DNA of 25,561 nt, from the IMG/VR virus record IMGVR_UViG_3300035157_000272, positions 1 to 25,561 of that record, one strand, 5' to 3'. Made by a program: the position numbers and the translations under genes. Below are positions 5,156-19,189 of the stretch, piece by piece; within the stretch, counting starts at the first letter, position 1; each line of letters begins with the position of its first letter. The DNA comes from a virus. Its lineage: Duplodnaviria > Caudoviricetes. The notes under the pieces were generated by a model. It made no database searches. It had not been told where the DNA came from and was given only the letters and a program-made list of their open reading frames with translations.

Positions 5156-6186
5156 TGAAAGTTCTTTTAATTACTGACCAACACTTTGGTGTTAGGAATG
5201 ACAATCAACATTTCATTAATCACTATAGAAAATACTATAGTAAGGTTGTTATACCTTTTATTAAAGCATATGGTATCACAGAAATAATAGATCTTGGTGA
5301 TACATTTGACAAACGTAAATCAGTTAACTTTATGTCTTTAGAGGCAGCGAAGGAAATGTGGTTTGATCCTATTAAAGACATAGGATGTAAGATGACTGCT
5401 TTGGTTGGTAATCATGATATCTATTATAAGAATACATTGAGAATCAATGCACCAAATGAACTACTAGGAGATTATGATATAGATGTCATTGATGAACCTA
5501 CTACCCGTAACTATGACGGTACTGACATATTATTTCTGCCTTGGATATGTGATGAGAACAGAGATGATACCTTCAGAAGCATCACGAAAAGTACTGCTCC
5601 TGTCTGTATGGGCCATCTCGAGCTTAACGGTTTTGAAGCTCATCCAGGTCATGTCATGAACATGGGTATGGATATTAATCCTTTTGATAAATTTCAAAGA
5701 GTCTTTAGTGGACACTATCATATGAAATCTACTAAAGGTAATATCTCATATCTAGGAAATCCATATCAACTATATTGGAATGACTATGGATGTAAACGTG
5801 GATTCCATGTGTTTGATACAGAAACTTTAAAGACTACTTTTTATAGAAATCCATATAATATGTTCTATAAACTGTATTACGATAATGGTGTTAGAAATGA
5901 AATTCATCCTTCTGACTTAGAAGGTACTTTTGTAAAATTAATTGTAGAAGATAAGGGTGATCAAACAAAATTTGATTATGCTGTAAGACAATTGCAAAGT
6001 TGGGGTCTTGCAGATTTAAAAATTATTGAGGATCTTTCTGTTGAGATGGAAGACTCACTTGTGCTGGAAACCGAAGATACCATCACGCTTTTAGATAAAT
6101 ATATAGATGAGATAGATCTCCCAGTTGACTCTGAAAATGTTAAGAGTATAATGAGATCACTCTATGTTGAGGCATGTGAACTATAA
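5155..6186 (+). CDS. g47: gp47 recombination nuclease (Mre11/SbcD-like)
   Basis: TDQHFG, LGDTFD, GNHD, GHLE, SGHYH metallophosphoesterase motifs. Confidence 0.95.
   Translation: MKVLLITDQHFGVRNDNQHFINHYRKYYSKVVIPFIKAYGITEIIDLGDTFDKRKSVNFMSLEAAKEMWFDPIKDIGCKMTALVGNHDIYYKNTLRINAPNELLGDYDIDVIDEPTTRNYDGTDILFLPWICDENRDDTFRSITKSTAPVCMGHLELNGFEAHPGHVMNMGMDINPFDKFQRVFSGHYHMKSTKGNISYLGNPYQLYWNDYGCKRGFHVFDTETLKTTFYRNPYNMFYKLYYDNGVRNEIHPSDLEGTFVKLIVEDKGDQTKFDYAVRQLQSWGLADLKIIEDLSVEMEDSLVLETEDTITLLDKYIDEIDLPVDSENVKSIMRSLYVEACEL
5483..5659 (+). CDS. putative nested 2-TM membrane protein (58 aa), +1 frame of g47 (not in ORF track)
   Basis: MSLMNLLPVTMTVLTYYFCLGYVMRTEMIPSEASRKVLLLSVWAISSLTVLKLIQVMS; AGGAG at 5466-5470; local codon shift. 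Confidence 0.45.
   Translation: MSLMNLLPVTMTVLTYYFCLGYVMRTEMIPSEASRKVLLLSVWAISSLTVLKLIQVMS
6094..6101 (+). promoter_or_regulatory. possible late promoter GATAAATA
   Basis: consensus match about 85 nt upstream of ORF 6186. Confidence 0.4.
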
Positions 6187-6434: not shown

Positions 6435-8149
6435 TTTTATTTGATACGATTCGTTGGAAGAATTTTCTTTCAGCAGGTGACCAGTGGATTGAAATTAAAT
6501 TAGATGAGAGTATGTCAACTCTCATTATAGGATCGAATGGTGCTGGTAAGTCTACCATTCTCGATGCTTTATGCTTTGCATTATTCAATAGACCATTCCG
6601 TAGAGTTAAAAAATCTCAACTCATTAATAGTATTAATGAGAAAGGAACAAAAGTTGAAGTGTGTTTTTCTATAGGAAGTGATGACTATAGAGTGTTTCGA
6701 TCAATGAAACCAAACACATTTGAAGTGTATAAAAATAATAAAATGGTTGACCAAGATGCTGCTGTAAAAGATACGCAGAAATATTTGGAGCAATCAGTAT
6801 TGAAACTCAATTTCAAAAGTTTTACTCAAGTTGTTATATTAGGCAGTAGTACGTTTGTGCCCTTTATGCAACTAGCTGCACCTCATCGTAGAGAAGTTAT
6901 TGAAGATCTTTTAGATATTGGTATATTCTCTTCTATGAATACCTTACTTAAGGATAAGGTTAGATCAGCAATGAGTCAAAGTAAAGATTGCGATCATTTA
7001 CTTAGGTTATCTGAAGAAAAGGTAAGTGCTCAGAAAACATTAATACAGTCTTTAGAGGCAGTAAATGAAACACGTAGGGAAGAAAAGGTTTTAAAAATAG
7101 CAGAGAATGAAGAAAAGATATTTAATCTTACTGGTGGTCTTGCTGAGATGAAGACACAGGTTGAATTATTGGAGTCTGAATATACTGGATCTGATGCTCC
7201 TAAAAAGATCTTACAGGATTTACGTCAACAACAAGCAGATAATAAATCTGCGATAAAAATTACTGCTGCTGAAATAAAGTTTTTTAGTGAAAATAATGTA
7301 TGTCCTACGTGTCATCAATCTATTGATGAAGAATTTAAAACTAATAAGCTTGCTGAGTCACATAAAGAAGGTAAAAAATATGAGAGGAAGTTAAAGAAAC
7401 TTGAGAAAACTGTTAAAGAAACTATTAGTATTATTGATAAGTTAGATGATGTATCTTCTAAGTTATATGAGTCTCGTAGTGAAGCATCTCAAATGGAAAA
7501 AGAGATCATTCGTATAGAGAAAGATAATATACAGTTGACAAAAGAGATGAGTGATATTGTAGATCATCAATCTATTACACACATTGAGGATGAATTAATT
7601 GAGTTGGAAAATGAATACAAGAAAGTTGAAACTGATTGTTCTTCTATCAATAAAACATTAGATGAGTATAAAGTTGTTTCTACTTTATTAAAGGATGGTG
7701 GAATCAAGAGTCAAATTATTAAGAAGTATGTACCTGTTATTAATAAGTTGATTAATAAGTATCTACAGAGTATGGATTTCTATATTAACTTCACACTTGA
7801 TGAGGAGTTTAATGAAATAATTAAGAGTAGATTTAGAGATGAGTTTTCTTATGCATCATTTTCTGAGGGTGAGAAGCAGAAGATAGACTTAGCACTTCTC
7901 TTTACATGGAGAGAGATTGCACGTATGAAAAATTCTGTTGCAACAAATCTTCTTATACTTGATGAGGTATTTGATAGTTCCTTGGATGATCAAGCAACTG
8001 GTGAGTTGTTAAAAATTCTTAGAAGTCTTGGTGTCGGAACAAATGTATTTGTAATATCCCATAAAGGTGATATACTGGTGGACAAATTCCTCAAGACTAT
8101 TAAGTTTGAAAAACAAAATGATTTTTCTAAGATGTCTGAAGAATCATAA
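6431..8149 (+). CDS. g46: gp46 recombination ATPase (Rad50/SbcC-like)
   Basis: GSNGAGKS, zinc hook CPTC, FSEGE signature, LLILDE, ISH. Confidence 0.95.
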   Translation: MILFDTIRWKNFLSAGDQWIEIKLDESMSTLIIGSNGAGKSTILDALCFALFNRPFRRVKKSQLINSINEKGTKVEVCFSIGSDDYRVFRSMKPNTFEVYKNNKMVDQDAAVKDTQKYLEQSVLKLNFKSFTQVVILGSSTFVPFMQLAAPHRREVIEDLLDIGIFSSMNTLLKDKVRSAMSQSKDCDHLLRLSEEKVSAQKTLIQSLEAVNETRREEKVLKIAENEEKIFNLTGGLAEMKTQVELLESEYTGSDAPKKILQDLRQQQADNKSAIKITAAEIKFFSENNVCPTCHQSIDEEFKTNKLAESHKEGKKYERKLKKLEKTVKETISIIDKLDDVSSKLYESRSEASQMEKEIIRIEKDNIQLTKEMSDIVDHQSITHIEDELIELENEYKKVETDCSSINKTLDEYKVVSTLLKDGGIKSQIIKKYVPVINKLINKYLQSMDFYINFTLDEEFNEIIKSRFRDEFSYASFSEGEKQKIDLALLFTWREIARMKNSVATNLLILDEVFDSSLDDQATGELLKILRSLGVGTNVFVISHKGDILVDKFLKTIKFEKQNDFSKMSEES

Positions 8150-11472: not shown

Positions 11473-11623
11473 ATGGTCAGCATACATATTATTGCAATCA
11501 AACAGACTTACTAAAGTAGAGTTTGTTTGTGAATCTAATTTGAGAGAAGATGCTATACAAAGATGCAAGGCATTATATGGTGTGAGTGATGTAAGGCAAC
11601 TGACTAGGGTGTGGACACATTAG
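11450..11623 (+). CDS. 57-aa hypothetical protein (not in ORF track)
   Basis: MNQMQNTKWSAYILLQSNRLTKVEFVCESNLREDAIQRCKALYGVSDVRQLTRVWTH fills the pcyA-cobS gap; alternative start 11459. Confidence 0.75.
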   Translation: MNQMQNTKWSAYILLQSNRLTKVEFVCESNLREDAIQRCKALYGVSDVRQLTRVWTH

Positions 11624-11668
11624 AAAGTGACCACACATGGTTGATTCATGGCTTGAGCGTGTTATAAT
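11611..11668 (+). promoter_or_regulatory. early-type promoter: inverted repeat plus sigma70 boxes
   Basis: GTGGACAC-N8-GTGACCAC, TTGATT 11641-11646, TGT-TATAAT 11660-11668. Confidence 0.75.
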
Positions 11669-11691: not shown

Positions 11692-12786
11692 ATGACCTTT
11701 CAAGCAAAATTTACAGACGATGCCCTAATCTCCTTCTTTGATACTGGAGATATTACTAGTGACCAAGTAACAAGTTTTGCTGAGAGTGTTGGTGTTAAGA
11801 CTCAAAGCGTTACAAAGAGAATGAATAAGTTGCCACAGTTTTCTAAGGTTGGTCGTGGTAAGTGGAATCTTAGTATTGTAGAAGCTAAAGAAGTTCAAGA
11901 GCAAGTCACTAGACAAGTGAGGAAAGCAATTGAAAATCTTGCACCAGCAAAGGATCCTAATTATGTTCCTTTTGGTAACTTCTCTGATGTTAAGAAAGTT
12001 ATTCAGTCAAAGTTATTCTATCCCACATTCATTACTGGACTCTCTGGTAATGGTAAGACTCTATCAGTAGAGCAAGCATGTGCTCAGTTGGGTAGAGAAC
12101 TTATTCGTGTAAACATTACAATCGAAACAGATGAAGACGATCTTATTGGCGGTTTCCGTCTTGTTGATGGCAACACCGTATGGCACAATGGCCCAGTCAT
12201 CGAAGCACTCAGACGAGGTGCTATCTTGCTCCTTGACGAAATCGACCTTGCCTCTAATAAAATTCTCTGTCTCCAATCCATTCTTGAAGGAAAAGGAGTC
12301 TTCCTTAAAAAAATCGGAGAATACGTCCAACCAAAAGACGGATTCAACATCATCGCAACTGCTAACACTAAAGGTAAAGGATCCGAAGACGGACGATTTA
12401 TTGGAACTAATGTGCTCAACGAAGCCTTCTTAGAAAGATTCCCTGTAACCTTTGAGCAGAATTATCCTACTCCAGTTGTTGAGACTAAGATCTTACTTAA
12501 TGCTGGATGCGAGCAAGAGTTTGCTGATAACCTAATCAAGTGGGCAGGTGTTATTCGTAAGACATTCTATGATGGTGGTGTTGATGAAGTTATAACCACT
12601 CGTAGATTAGTTCATATCGTGCAAGCTAAAGAGATCTTTGGTGATCGTCTTAAAGCAATTACTAATTGTATTGCTAGGTTTGATGATGACACTAAGGAAT
12701 CTTTCCTAGACCTTTATACAAAGGTTGACGCAGGAGAAGAAACAGAGTATACTGAGGAGGACAAACAAGATAATAATGAAGTATAG
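11692..12786 (+). CDS. cobS: CobS / MoxR-like AAA+ ATPase
   Basis: GLSGNGKT, DEDDLIG, LLLDEID, ATANTKG, AFLERF, ITTRRL. Confidence 0.9.
   Translation: MTFQAKFTDDALISFFDTGDITSDQVTSFAESVGVKTQSVTKRMNKLPQFSKVGRGKWNLSIVEAKEVQEQVTRQVRKAIENLAPAKDPNYVPFGNFSDVKKVIQSKLFYPTFITGLSGNGKTLSVEQACAQLGRELIRVNITIETDEDDLIGGFRLVDGNTVWHNGPVIEALRRGAILLLDEIDLASNKILCLQSILEGKGVFLKKIGEYVQPKDGFNIIATANTKGKGSEDGRFIGTNVLNEAFLERFPVTFEQNYPTPVVETKILLNAGCEQEFADNLIKWAGVIRKTFYDGGVDEVITTRRLVHIVQAKEIFGDRLKAITNCIARFDDDTKESFLDLYTKVDAGEETEYTEEDKQDNNEV
12131..12433 (+). CDS. putative nested secreted protein (100 aa), +1 frame of cobS
   Basis: signal peptide MKTILLAVSVLLMATPYGTMA, S/T/K-rich body, two Cys; strong local codon shift in cobS. 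Confidence 0.55.
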   Translation: MKTILLAVSVLLMATPYGTMAQSSKHSDEVLSCSLTKSTLPLIKFSVSNPFLKEKESSLKKSENTSNQKTDSTSSQLLTLKVKDPKTDDLLELMCSTKPS

Positions 12787-13746: not shown

Positions 13747-14683
13747 TGATTTTCTATGGGTCGAGAAGTATCGACCTCAGACTATTGAGGATTGTATTCT
13801 CCCTATAGATATAAAGGAGACCTTCAAAAGTTTCATAGAGCAAGGTGAGATACCAAATCTCTTGCTCTCTGGTACTGCTGGAGTTGGTAAAACTACCATT
13901 GCGAAAGCATTGTGTAATGAATTGGGAGCAGATTTTTATGTCATTAACGGATCCGATGAAGGTAGGTTTCTCGATACTGTCAGGAATCAAGCGAAAAACT
14001 TCGCAGCCACTGTATCCCTTACTGCAACATCTAGACACAAAGTCCTTATCATTGATGAGGCAGACAACACCACCCCCGATGTACAGCTCTTACTTAGAGC
14101 CTCTATTGAGGAATTCCAAAAAAACTGCAGGTTTATATTTACGTGCAACTTTAAAAACAAAATCATAGAGCCACTACATAGTAGAACTACTGTAATTGAT
14201 TTCAATGTCAGAGGAAAAACTAAGCAAACTCTTGCAGGTCAGTTCTTTGAAAGGTGTAGAGACATCCTTACCAGAGAGAAAGTACGGTTCAATGACAAAG
14301 TGGTTGCCACAGTTATACAAAAGTACTTCCCAGATTTCAGAAGAACACTCAATGAGCTCCAAAGATATAGTTCAACAGGCTCTATTGATACTGGAATCCT
14401 CGCAGCTTTAGGTGATGCTAAGATAGATTCTCTTACTGGATATCTAAAGCATAAAAAGTTTAATGATGTTAAGAAATGGGTAACACAAAATCTAGATAGT
14501 GATCCCACTTCTATAATGAGGAAGTTGTATGATACTCTTTCTTCTATGATGGAAGGACCAAGTGTTGCAGCAGCAGTTTTAATTATTGCTGAATACCAAT
14601 ATAAGTCTGCGTTTGTAGTAGATCAAGAGATAAATCTATTAGCATGTCTTACGCAAATTATGTTGGAGTGTGAATTCAAATGA
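13739..14683 (+). CDS. g44: gp44 clamp loader large subunit
   Basis: LWVEKYRP, GTAGVGKT, IIDEAD, PLHSR, FPDFRR. Confidence 0.95.
   Translation: MPNDFLWVEKYRPQTIEDCILPIDIKETFKSFIEQGEIPNLLLSGTAGVGKTTIAKALCNELGADFYVINGSDEGRFLDTVRNQAKNFAATVSLTATSRHKVLIIDEADNTTPDVQLLLRASIEEFQKNCRFIFTCNFKNKIIEPLHSRTTVIDFNVRGKTKQTLAGQFFERCRDILTREKVRFNDKVVATVIQKYFPDFRRTLNELQRYSSTGSIDTGILAALGDAKIDSLTGYLKHKKFNDVKKWVTQNLDSDPTSIMRKLYDTLSSMMEGPSVAAAVLIIAEYQYKSAFVVDQEINLLACLTQIMLECEFK
13917..14168 (+). CDS. putative nested ORF (83 aa), +1 frame of g44
   Basis: first ATG of track ORF 13845..14168; C-ending codon enrichment in g44. Confidence 0.3.
   Translation: MNWEQIFMSLTDPMKVGFSILSGIKRKTSQPLYPLLQHLDTKSLSLMRQTTPPPMYSSYLEPLLRNSKKTAGLYLRATLKTKS
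14205..14411 (+). CDS. putative nested ORF (68 aa), +1 frame of g44
   Basis: MSEEKLSKLLQ...DIVQQALLILESSQL; the codon anomaly in g44 ends at its stop. Confidence 0.35.
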   Translation: MSEEKLSKLLQVSSLKGVETSLPERKYGSMTKWLPQLYKSTSQISEEHSMSSKDIVQQALLILESSQL

Positions 14684-14859
14684 GAACACAGAATAAGGAA
14701 AACTATTATTATATGTTTTGGGTGGTTGCAATGGTAGCATTTATTGTACCTCAAGTATACACCGCAATAGCATATAATAAACTTGCTAATATTCTTAATG
14801 AACCTCTAGAGGTTGAGATTAAGGATATGCCACCATATAGAGTGGAGTATTATAAATGA
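14680..14859 (+). CDS. 59-aa single-TM protein (not in ORF track)
   Basis: MRTQNKENYYYMFWVVAMVAFIVPQVYTAIAYNKLANILNEPLEVEIKDMPPYRVEYYK; ATGA overlaps at both ends. Confidence 0.85.
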   Translation: MRTQNKENYYYMFWVVAMVAFIVPQVYTAIAYNKLANILNEPLEVEIKDMPPYRVEYYK

Positions 14860-17844: not shown

Positions 17845-18368
17845 GACTAGGTGTTATGTGCTCTGGTAAGGGTACCAACTTCGAGAACATTCTACGCACT
17901 TGTAATAAGCATGAAGTTGTGTTGATGATACACAACAAAAAAGATTGTGGTGCTGTAAAGGTAGCAGAAAAATTTGGTGTCCCACATTGTTACATACCAC
18001 ACAAAGATGAAGAGAGGATGATTGATCTCTTAAAGGTATGGCGTGTGCAACTTGTTGTGCTTGCAGGATACATGAGAATTTTATCACCTAATTTCATCAA
18101 CTCATTCCCAGAAAGAATTATTAATGTGCATCCATCTCTACTTCCCAAGTATAAAGGCATTGATGCTGTAGAGCAAGCATTGGAAAGTGGAGATGATGTT
18201 ACAGGATGTACTGTCCATATAGTGACAGAAGAGTTAGATTCTGGTAGAATACTCCTACAGGGAAAAGTCCCTATTGAAAAAGATGATACGGTAAAAACTT
18301 TAACCAAACGTATTCAACGTTCTGAGTATGGTATTTTACCAGCAGCAATCAACAACTTTACATTATGA
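17841..18368 (+). CDS. purN: phosphoribosylglycinamide formyltransferase
   Basis: SGKGTN, LAGYMRIL, NVHPSLLP, GCTVH, LDSG. Confidence 0.95.
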   Translation: MRLGVMCSGKGTNFENILRTCNKHEVVLMIHNKKDCGAVKVAEKFGVPHCYIPHKDEERMIDLLKVWRVQLVVLAGYMRILSPNFINSFPERIINVHPSLLPKYKGIDAVEQALESGDDVTGCTVHIVTEELDSGRILLQGKVPIEKDDTVKTLTKRIQRSEYGILPAAINNFTL

Positions 18369-19189
18369 AATCTTTGAAAACTCCTCTTCGATATCCAGGA
18401 GGTAAATCACGTGCTATTACAAAGATGGCACAGTTCTTACCAGACATGAGTAAGTATAAGGAGTATCGTGAACCTTTTCTTGGAGGTGGATCTGTTGCTT
18501 TGTATATGACAAAGACCTTTCCTCATTTAGAAATATGGGTTAATGATCTTTATGAACCGCTAGTTAACTTCTGGCAACAATTACAAGATGATGGAGATGA
18601 AATTGCGAAAGACTTACGTGCCCTCAAAGAGAGACATGATTCCACAGATAGAGCCAGATACCTTTTTCTGGAATGCAAAGAAAATCTTGACAAGGAGACT
18701 ACGCCCAGAGATCGTGCTGTCTATTTTTATGTTATCAACAAGTGCAGCTTTAGTGGTCTTACTGAGTCCTCGTCATTCAGTGCCCAAGCATCACAATCCA
18801 ACTTTTCAATTAGAGGAATCGATAAGTTACCTGGCTATCAAGAGTTAATAGAAGATTGGACTATAACTAATCTAACTTATGAAAGGATGTTGAGTGATGA
18901 GAAGGATACATTTATATACTTAGATCCACCATATGAGATAGGAACTAATTTATATGGTAAGAAGGGTGAGATGCATAAGTATTTTGATCATGATGCATTC
19001 TCTAAAGAATGTGATGGATTTACTAGTCATCAGATGATATCATATAATAGTGATCAAGTTGTAAAGGATCGTTTTAAGAATTGGAATGCGTATGAATATG
19101 AGCACACGTATACTATGAGATCAGTTGGTGATTATATGAAGGATCAGCAAGGAAGAAAAGAATTGGTATTAACCAACTATGGCATATGA
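18365..19189 (+). CDS. dam: Dam/D12-class N6-adenine DNA methyltransferase
   Basis: LRYPGGKS, EPFLGGGSV, VND, YLDPPY, ELVLTNY. Confidence 0.92.
   Translation: MKSLKTPLRYPGGKSRAITKMAQFLPDMSKYKEYREPFLGGGSVALYMTKTFPHLEIWVNDLYEPLVNFWQQLQDDGDEIAKDLRALKERHDSTDRARYLFLECKENLDKETTPRDRAVYFYVINKCSFSGLTESSSFSAQASQSNFSIRGIDKLPGYQELIEDWTITNLTYERMLSDEKDTFIYLDPPYEIGTNLYGKKGEMHKYFDHDAFSKECDGFTSHQMISYNSDQVVKDRFKNWNAYEYEHTYTMRSVGDYMKDQQGRKELVLTNYGI
18588..18848 (+). CDS. putative nested single-TM protein (86 aa), +1 frame of dam
   Basis: basic KKILTRRLRP then IVLSIFMLSTSAALVVLL; local codon shift. Confidence 0.45.
   Translation: MMEMKLRKTYVPSKRDMIPQIEPDTFFWNAKKILTRRLRPEIVLSIFMLSTSAALVVLLSPRHSVPKHHNPTFQLEESISYLAIKS

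Follow-up and report, generated by a model that had tools for sequence, protein, structure and literature searches.

A probable overprinted gene for an exported protein in the +1 frame of cyanophage cobS

The cobS gene of a T4-like cyanophage was found to contain, wholly nested and in the +1 frame, an open reading frame (ORF) that is likely to be a real overprinted gene. Its product is probably exported, and a small protein of de novo origin with one disulfide is likely. The 25.6 kb piece of DNA that was analysed, referred to here as the window, carries a uvsW-like helicase, gp47, gp46, pcyA, cobS, the clamp loader and a DNA methylase, and its nearest CobS relative is that of P-SSM4 (71%). The cobS product matches Pfam AAA_5 and CbbQ_C and falls in PHROG 249; with a TIGR01650 score of 62 bits against a cut-off of 559 it is, by score, a MoxR/CbbQ-type AAA+ ATPase and no true cobaltochelatase CobS. 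The features to which the analysis refers are as follows.

11641..11668, + strand: sigma70-like promoter 5' of cobS, TTGATT-16-TATAAT with TG, a consensus match only
11692..12786, + strand: cobS, MoxR/CbbQ-type AAA+ ATPase, 364 aa
12109..12130, + strand: A/T-rich conserved stretch 5' of the ATG, candidate initiation region or internal promoter
12131..12433, + strand: overprinted +1 ORF (putative gene), ATG to TAG, 100 aa, over cobS codons 147-247 in the AAA+ core
12131..12193, + strand: predicted Sec signal peptide, aa 1-21, with an MK n-region, h-region at 4-14, Pro16 and a Thr19-x-Ala21 cleavage motif
12227..12229, + strand: Cys33, from cobS Leu179 (NTG)
12413..12415, + strand: Cys95, from cobS Val241 (GTG)

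An earlier note on this DNA, made from the letters alone, had proposed a 100-aa +1 ORF over the AAA+ core of cobS with cysteines at 33 and 95, and all of these are present at 12131-12433. The C-rich and G-poor codon ends that it described were recovered as well, third positions in the 102 codons of the span being C 37, G 3, A 33 and T 29, and so was its observation that all Lys, Glu and Gln codons are A-ending (7, 8 and 2 codons respectively). The 100 cobS codons that follow have 14 C-ending and 14 G-ending. Of the three G-ending codons in the span one is an obligatory Trp and the other two create Cys33 and Cys95; in a scan of 25 genes no other 60-codon window was as rich in C over G as the patch. 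Under a null with window-wide codon usage a stop-free frame has a probability of 5e-5 and so hydrophilic a body one of 3e-4. Shuffling of the patch's own codons raises the former to 0.17 (open in 17-23% of trials), so that an open frame in a single genome does not decide the matter; the difference in hydropathy between the h-region and the body has a probability of 5e-5 even with the own-codon shuffle, although the features tested were defined after inspection of the sequence.

Investigation of cobS homologs began with a first fetch of 82 rows (the window and 81 others). In 18 of these the span had no stop and the +1 peptide was shared, while the remaining 64 contained between one and nine stops. 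To avoid circularity the class test was restricted to loci that the CobS protein had retrieved (162 rows), which were scored at 82 sites unable to make a +1 stop against a key drawn from 80 loci that the +1 profile had retrieved. Patch scores among these rows were bimodal. With near-duplicates removed the frame lacked stops in 22 of the 23 core rows (those scoring >=0.66, including the window), in 32 of 38 rows scoring >=0.51 and in only one of the 82 below, counts which are not independent, as the rows are related by descent, and which depend on cut-offs chosen after the scores were seen. Free interruption of the frame in homologs, which the earlier note had named as telling against a gene, is therefore seen almost solely in rows without the patch (81/82). 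That note had also held +1 shadows to be usually hydrophobic; this stands for the closed cobS homologs, where body hydropathy is +0.07 to +0.46 as against -0.39 to -0.47 where the frame is open, and beyond those homologs it has been compared with the codon-usage null only. For the comparisons that follow, 92 patch-class rows, a set that includes loci found with the +1 profile, were set against the 82 closed rows.

Of the 92 patch-class rows, 79 have an ORF of 100 or 105 aa and six a shortened one. The ORF is intact in P-SSM4, S-SM2, S-SCSM1, S-SSM7, P-TIM68, SynMITS9220M01, S-SCSM2R and AG-345-F15, seven of these eight records having been chosen as top DNA matches to the patch, and is broken by one to five stops in all of 10 further named cyanophages, including Syn9, P-SSM2 and P-HM1. 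Its distribution is thus narrower than that of cobS. The +1 ORF is annotated in none of the seven annotated open records, and no free-standing homolog occurs among 13 profile matches to its product. The 4 + 13 database matches to the +1 protein (lengths of 55-184 aa were searched) were set aside as evidence, all of them being cobS-overlap calls and most of them frame-switching chimeras. Four loci, L477 (P-RSM6), L250, L283 and L291, are partly patch-like with one or two stops, internal to the ORF in L250, and look like decaying or mosaic copies. AG-345-F15 and P-SSM2, although both filed as Salacisavirus, carry different allele classes.

One indication of a gene comes from the placing of synonymous variants. 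An A-ending Leu, Val or Ile codon produces a +1 stop only if a purine comes next, and in the core-class patch such codons occur in 0/21 stop-making site contexts as against 5/12 before a pyrimidine (p=0.003). Both controls, namely the flanks of the core rows (15/40 stop-making, 9/20 free) and the patch of closed rows (19/28 and 18/23), lack this difference. The mean frequency of stop-making synonymous alternatives is 0.000 in the core patch, as compared with 0.070 for its flanks and 0.084 for the patch of closed rows, while that of other transversions in the core-class patch is 0.044. A synonymous constraint scan, which the earlier note had suggested as a check, gave an identity among open rows of 0.76 in the patch versus 0.53 and 0.60 in the flanks, climbing at codon 136 and dropping at 246, whereas closed pairs had 0.52 in the patch versus 0.51 and 0.59. 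In disjoint close pairs third-position differences are halved (0.107 vs 0.198 per codon) and first and second positions are equal (0.049 vs 0.050).

Individual features of the ORF are also retained. The ATG is present in 90/92 patch-class rows versus 46/82 closed, Cys33 in 89/92 versus 28/82, Cys95 in 89/92 versus 22/82 and both cysteines together in 88/92 versus 9/82; S-SCSM1 has Tyr in place of Cys95. At Leu179 the first base, which is doubly silent, is T in 57 and C in 35 sequences, yet the G that makes the cysteine is fixed. Gly and Arg codons that are A-ending, and hence read as Asp or Glu in +1, make up 3% in the signal region and 65% in the mature region. Support for selection on the +1 amino-acid sequence is weak: BLOSUM similarity was no significant predictor of the synonymous variants that are tolerated (rho 0.16-0.17, p 0.10-0.13; closed control 0.15), dNN/dNS was 0.76 (0.40-1.48), like the 0.68 of the closed control, and a dSN/dSS of 0.28 (0.20-0.72) was obtained from less than one doubly silent site per sequence. 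Taken together, the sequence comparisons argue firmly for selection on the frame, start, signal and cysteines and for loose selection on the remainder of the +1 protein, and they support the earlier note in its claim of a signal-peptide protein with two cysteines that is encoded by overprinting, in that frame-specific selection keeps the +1 frame open across divergent phages. A picture of this kind has been reported for young overprinted genes (PMC8227390).

The promoter upstream of cobS would transcribe the nested ORF too. Inverted-repeat-like boxes lie at 11617-11668, upstream of the cobS extended -10. The earlier note had given the lack of a Shine-Dalgarno sequence (SD) as a caveat; there is indeed none at the +1 ORF, but the caveat is weak, an SD of 4 nt or more being found at only seven of the 35 listed starts in the window, one of which is misplaced by one codon. 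The stretch before the ATG is itself distinctive. A GTAAAC containing an in-frame +1 stop is found in 82/92 patch-class rows versus 16/82 closed, and a -10-like TACWAT (12117-12122), ending eight bases before the ATG and matched 9/12 by a promoter scan, in 77/92 versus 21/82; folding is weak (-4.0 kcal/mol in the patch class vs -5.4 in closed rows). These features fit initiation without an SD on the cobS mRNA, or else an internal transcript that is nearly leaderless, from either of which the product would be translated. Among contigs from RNA runs, four runs cover parts of cobS and X1 holds near-identical pieces over the ORF, such contigs carrying no start, strand or level.

The (-3,-1) rule, by rule-based scoring, is satisfied in 78/92 patch-class rows versus 6/82 closed and Pro16 is present in 80/92 versus 4/82, although a small residue at -1 is absent in P-SSM4, S-SSM7 and P-TIM68. 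The h-region has a hydropathy of 2.9 in the patch class and 2.5 at the matching place in closed homologs. A lipoprotein or o-spanin of the Rz1 type was considered and rejected, as there is no lipobox Cys after the h-region and the first Cys, at 33, lies beyond a charged KHSDE stretch. Searches with the +1 protein gave no match in Pfam or NCBIfam, a best E of 0.01 among relatives and none for the window protein in PHROGs, a best E of 0.38 in the PDB sequence search, and a best of 0.82 in the ESM Atlas with no usable match for the mature part. AlphaFold models have a pLDDT of 54 (full) and 58 (mature) and show a low-confidence beta-alpha-beta-beta arrangement with both Cys on strands; with these models Foldseek gave no match at E<=0.001 in its PDB and viral sets, and the best VIA match had a Z of 3.8. 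The product may be called a new protein family in the sense that these searches found no family, homolog or fold for it, but absent fold matches from low-confidence models are no proof of a new fold.

The cobS segment DEDDLIGGFRLVD casts a +1 shadow that is hydrophobic by nature, and from this shadow the gene would have originated de novo. As closed homologs already have such a shadow, a signal peptide was close at hand, and the cleavage region, hydrophilic body and two cysteines would have been fixed later by synonymous choices. Sec export would remove 21 aa to leave a mature chain of ~80 aa, rich in Ser, Thr and Lys and presumably closed by a Cys33-Cys95 disulfide.

It is apparent that the patch has a history of its own. 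The 20 core rows require 11 state changes on a tree built from the flanks of 106 rows, compared with two on the patch tree, and monophyly of the core class on the flank tree (a quick tree) is rejected (AU p=9e-5). The discordant phylogeny that the earlier note had feared as a sign of recombination is therefore real, and the patch moves between lineages. It does not refute a gene, because recombination cannot pick out +1 stops and because, within the patch class, stops are avoided even though its members have diversified. Both findings are most simply reconciled by an accessory gene carried as a core-gene allele, and slower evolution of the patch in lineages keeping an old gene may add to the discordance. 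The same discordance could also be explained with no second gene, if a C/A-rich cobS allele had spread by recombination or through co-conversion with a homing endonuclease, its codons giving rise incidentally to the open frame and the signal-like start. Such an explanation would sit well with the ~20% of own-codon shuffles that are open, with the hydrophobic N-terminus found in closed homologs too and with the weakness of the amino-acid-level tests. However, recombination cuts all variation equally, yet A-ending variants arise only where no stop results. The patch class is moreover diverse (53-96% +1 protein identity), and in the seven annotated open records no annotated endonuclease adjoins cobS, several neighbours being hypothetical. 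An allele without a second gene is accordingly considered improbable.

Two further explanations, both very unlikely, bear on how the third positions or the frame might be constrained. Stronger folding around codons 159-177 in the patch class, and an antisense ORF (12064-12330) that is open in the window, would be expected if a structured RNA or an antisense gene held the third positions. Compensatory change was, however, seen in none of 32 predicted pairs (28 sequences aligned over 12100-12300), there was no Rfam match over the ORF, and the antisense frame has a stop in 6/18 rows with an intact +1 frame. A second antisense ORF, 12084-12419, was discarded, as cobS positions 1-2 determine most of it and closed homologs, too, leave it nearly open. 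That the +1 frame is entered by programmed frameshift, giving an alternative CobS C-terminus, would account for the missing SD and for database proteins that switch between both frames. The switch points of these proteins nevertheless differ in place, as expected of indel errors, a conserved +1 stop seven codons upstream (84/92) leaves a window of only six codons, and the ATG and the h-region after it are selectively kept.

The reading of the +1 frame as an accessory gene implies that it would be gained and lost as a cassette via recombination inside the conserved cobS core. Gain and loss would then proceed at constant gene content, ~330 bases being swapped inside a core gene. cobS serves as a phylotype marker that is assumed to track the virus (PMC9983427), a use on which the conflict between the central third of the gene (11692-12786) and its own flanks bears.

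As to function, the product might, by analogy, bind an envelope target and so block a second phage. Spackle-like superinfection exclusion is tentatively put forward as the most likely single function; lysis timing and a host envelope or lumen target, taken together, are at least as likely. The choice of exclusion follows from the size, signal length and Cys pair, which parallel those of Spackle, and from the reported absence of the T4 superinfection and lysis-inhibition r genes from cyanophages (PMC2984593); the ORF is thus a concrete candidate for an envelope function. T4 Spackle (gp61.3) has 97 aa, a cleaved signal of 22 aa and a Cys29-Cys81 pair (PMC7650644), so that the two share a length of ~100 aa, a signal of 21-22 aa, a mature part of 75-80 aa and one long-range Cys pair (PMC7650644, PMC7677548). 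The timing may also be alike, namely early, to judge from the sigma70-like promoter upstream of cobS. Spackle has a gene of its own and a demonstrated target, the gp5 lysozyme, whereas the cobS ORF is nested and its envelope target would be a hypothetical one. There is no sequence match between the two (none in the PDB at E <0.38) nor a significant fold match from the low-confidence models, and no tail lysozyme gene was identified within the window. The fold of Spackle is helical, whereas that of the +1 model is beta-alpha-beta-beta.

A real exported gene with another job, either an RI-like regulator of lysis timing or a modulator of a host protein in the thylakoid lumen or periplasm, is a strong possibility that falls somewhat short of an even chance. 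It shares the gene-level evidence with exclusion and differs from it in function only. A signal peptide and a Cys pair would suit any small envelope protein, and Sec in cyanobacteria also serves the thylakoid lumen. The T4 antiholin RI is likewise a small periplasmic phage protein, at first membrane-tethered (PMC6832632). RI has a SAR domain as its tether and binds the holin T, whereas the +1 product is predicted to be cleaved, to judge from its conserved Pro and (-3,-1) motif, and no match to RI was found for it. An RI-like antiholin is the weaker option, given the predicted cleavable signal and the reported lack of r genes (PMC2984593), and no T-holin partner was identified here.

Nested phage genes in the +1 frame, such as E in D of phiX174 and Rz1 in Rz of lambda, are already known. 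The cobS ORF resembles them in being on the same strand, in the +1 frame, fully nested and narrower in distribution than the host gene, with a product predicted to be envelope-bound. It differs in that its host is a cyanophage core AAA+ ATPase unconnected with lysis or morphogenesis, in that its product has a predicted cleavable signal and two Cys with no lipobox and no mature transmembrane helix, and in that it is present only in some alleles and switches lineage by recombination. Overprinted genes have been treated as a class (PMC8227390). In the literature searched, which excludes subscription papers, nothing was found on a gene that overlaps cobS in cyanophages; a six-frame study of virion proteomics (PMC3037559) may bear on the ORF. 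If the gene is real and its product exported, then P-SSM4, S-SM2, S-SSM7 and P-TIM68, model phages whose annotations are up to two decades old, would encode an exported protein that has been overlooked, and gene-plus and gene-minus phages exist naturally for comparison.

The +1 frames of 16 other window genes were also scanned, 14 of them having seven or more distinct homologs. A 70-codon +1 window is open in at least half of the homologs for dam (0.97), gp44 (0.81), gp46 (0.75) and gp45 (0.54), compared with 0.37 for gp47 and <=0.10 for the other nine. The stop-context test gave p=0.025 for dam, 0.0007 for gp46, 0.009 and 0.029 for gp44 and 0.14 for gp47, values that are inflated as the boundaries were set post hoc. 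On the evidence of these alignments the cobS ORF is one of a recurring set of +1 frames in cyanophage core genes. The gp44 stretches have the same frame and the same stop avoidance in another host gene and with another protein, and compared with such hidden ORFs that of cobS has the clearest export signal and the Cys pair. A more speculative proposal, thought rather unlikely as a whole, is that of a hidden accessory genome in the +1 frame of the most conserved core genes (cobS, gp44 twice, dam and gp46), each member born de novo and moving between genera as an allele of its host gene, with the cobS member supplying a superinfection exclusion that otherwise has no recognised gene.

Several minor observations were made elsewhere in the window. 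A weak Rfam match to SAR11_0636 at 14707-14800 (27 bits against a gathering score of 67) is probably due to chance. In gp44 there are two conserved +1 stretches, 13938-14168 and 14205-14411; the first is stop-free in 53/53 close representatives and keeps a Trp while a doubly silent base varies, and the window has a divergent variant of it. The DNA methylase gene (18365-19189) contains a +1 ORF at 18588-18848 of 86 aa, with codons 76-150 stop-free in 33/34 homolog representatives, a basic N-terminal part, one hydrophobic segment and an end conserved in most, and is a candidate for a hidden membrane protein. A +1 ORF of 58 aa in gp47 (5483-5659), with two hydrophobic segments, is open in 19/38 representatives. 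Over codons 86-168 of gp46 (window ~6683-6940; loci L333-L395) a +1 ORF of ~85 aa is open in 22/32 representatives; it is broken in the window, and its pattern of open and closed alleles is like that seen in cobS.
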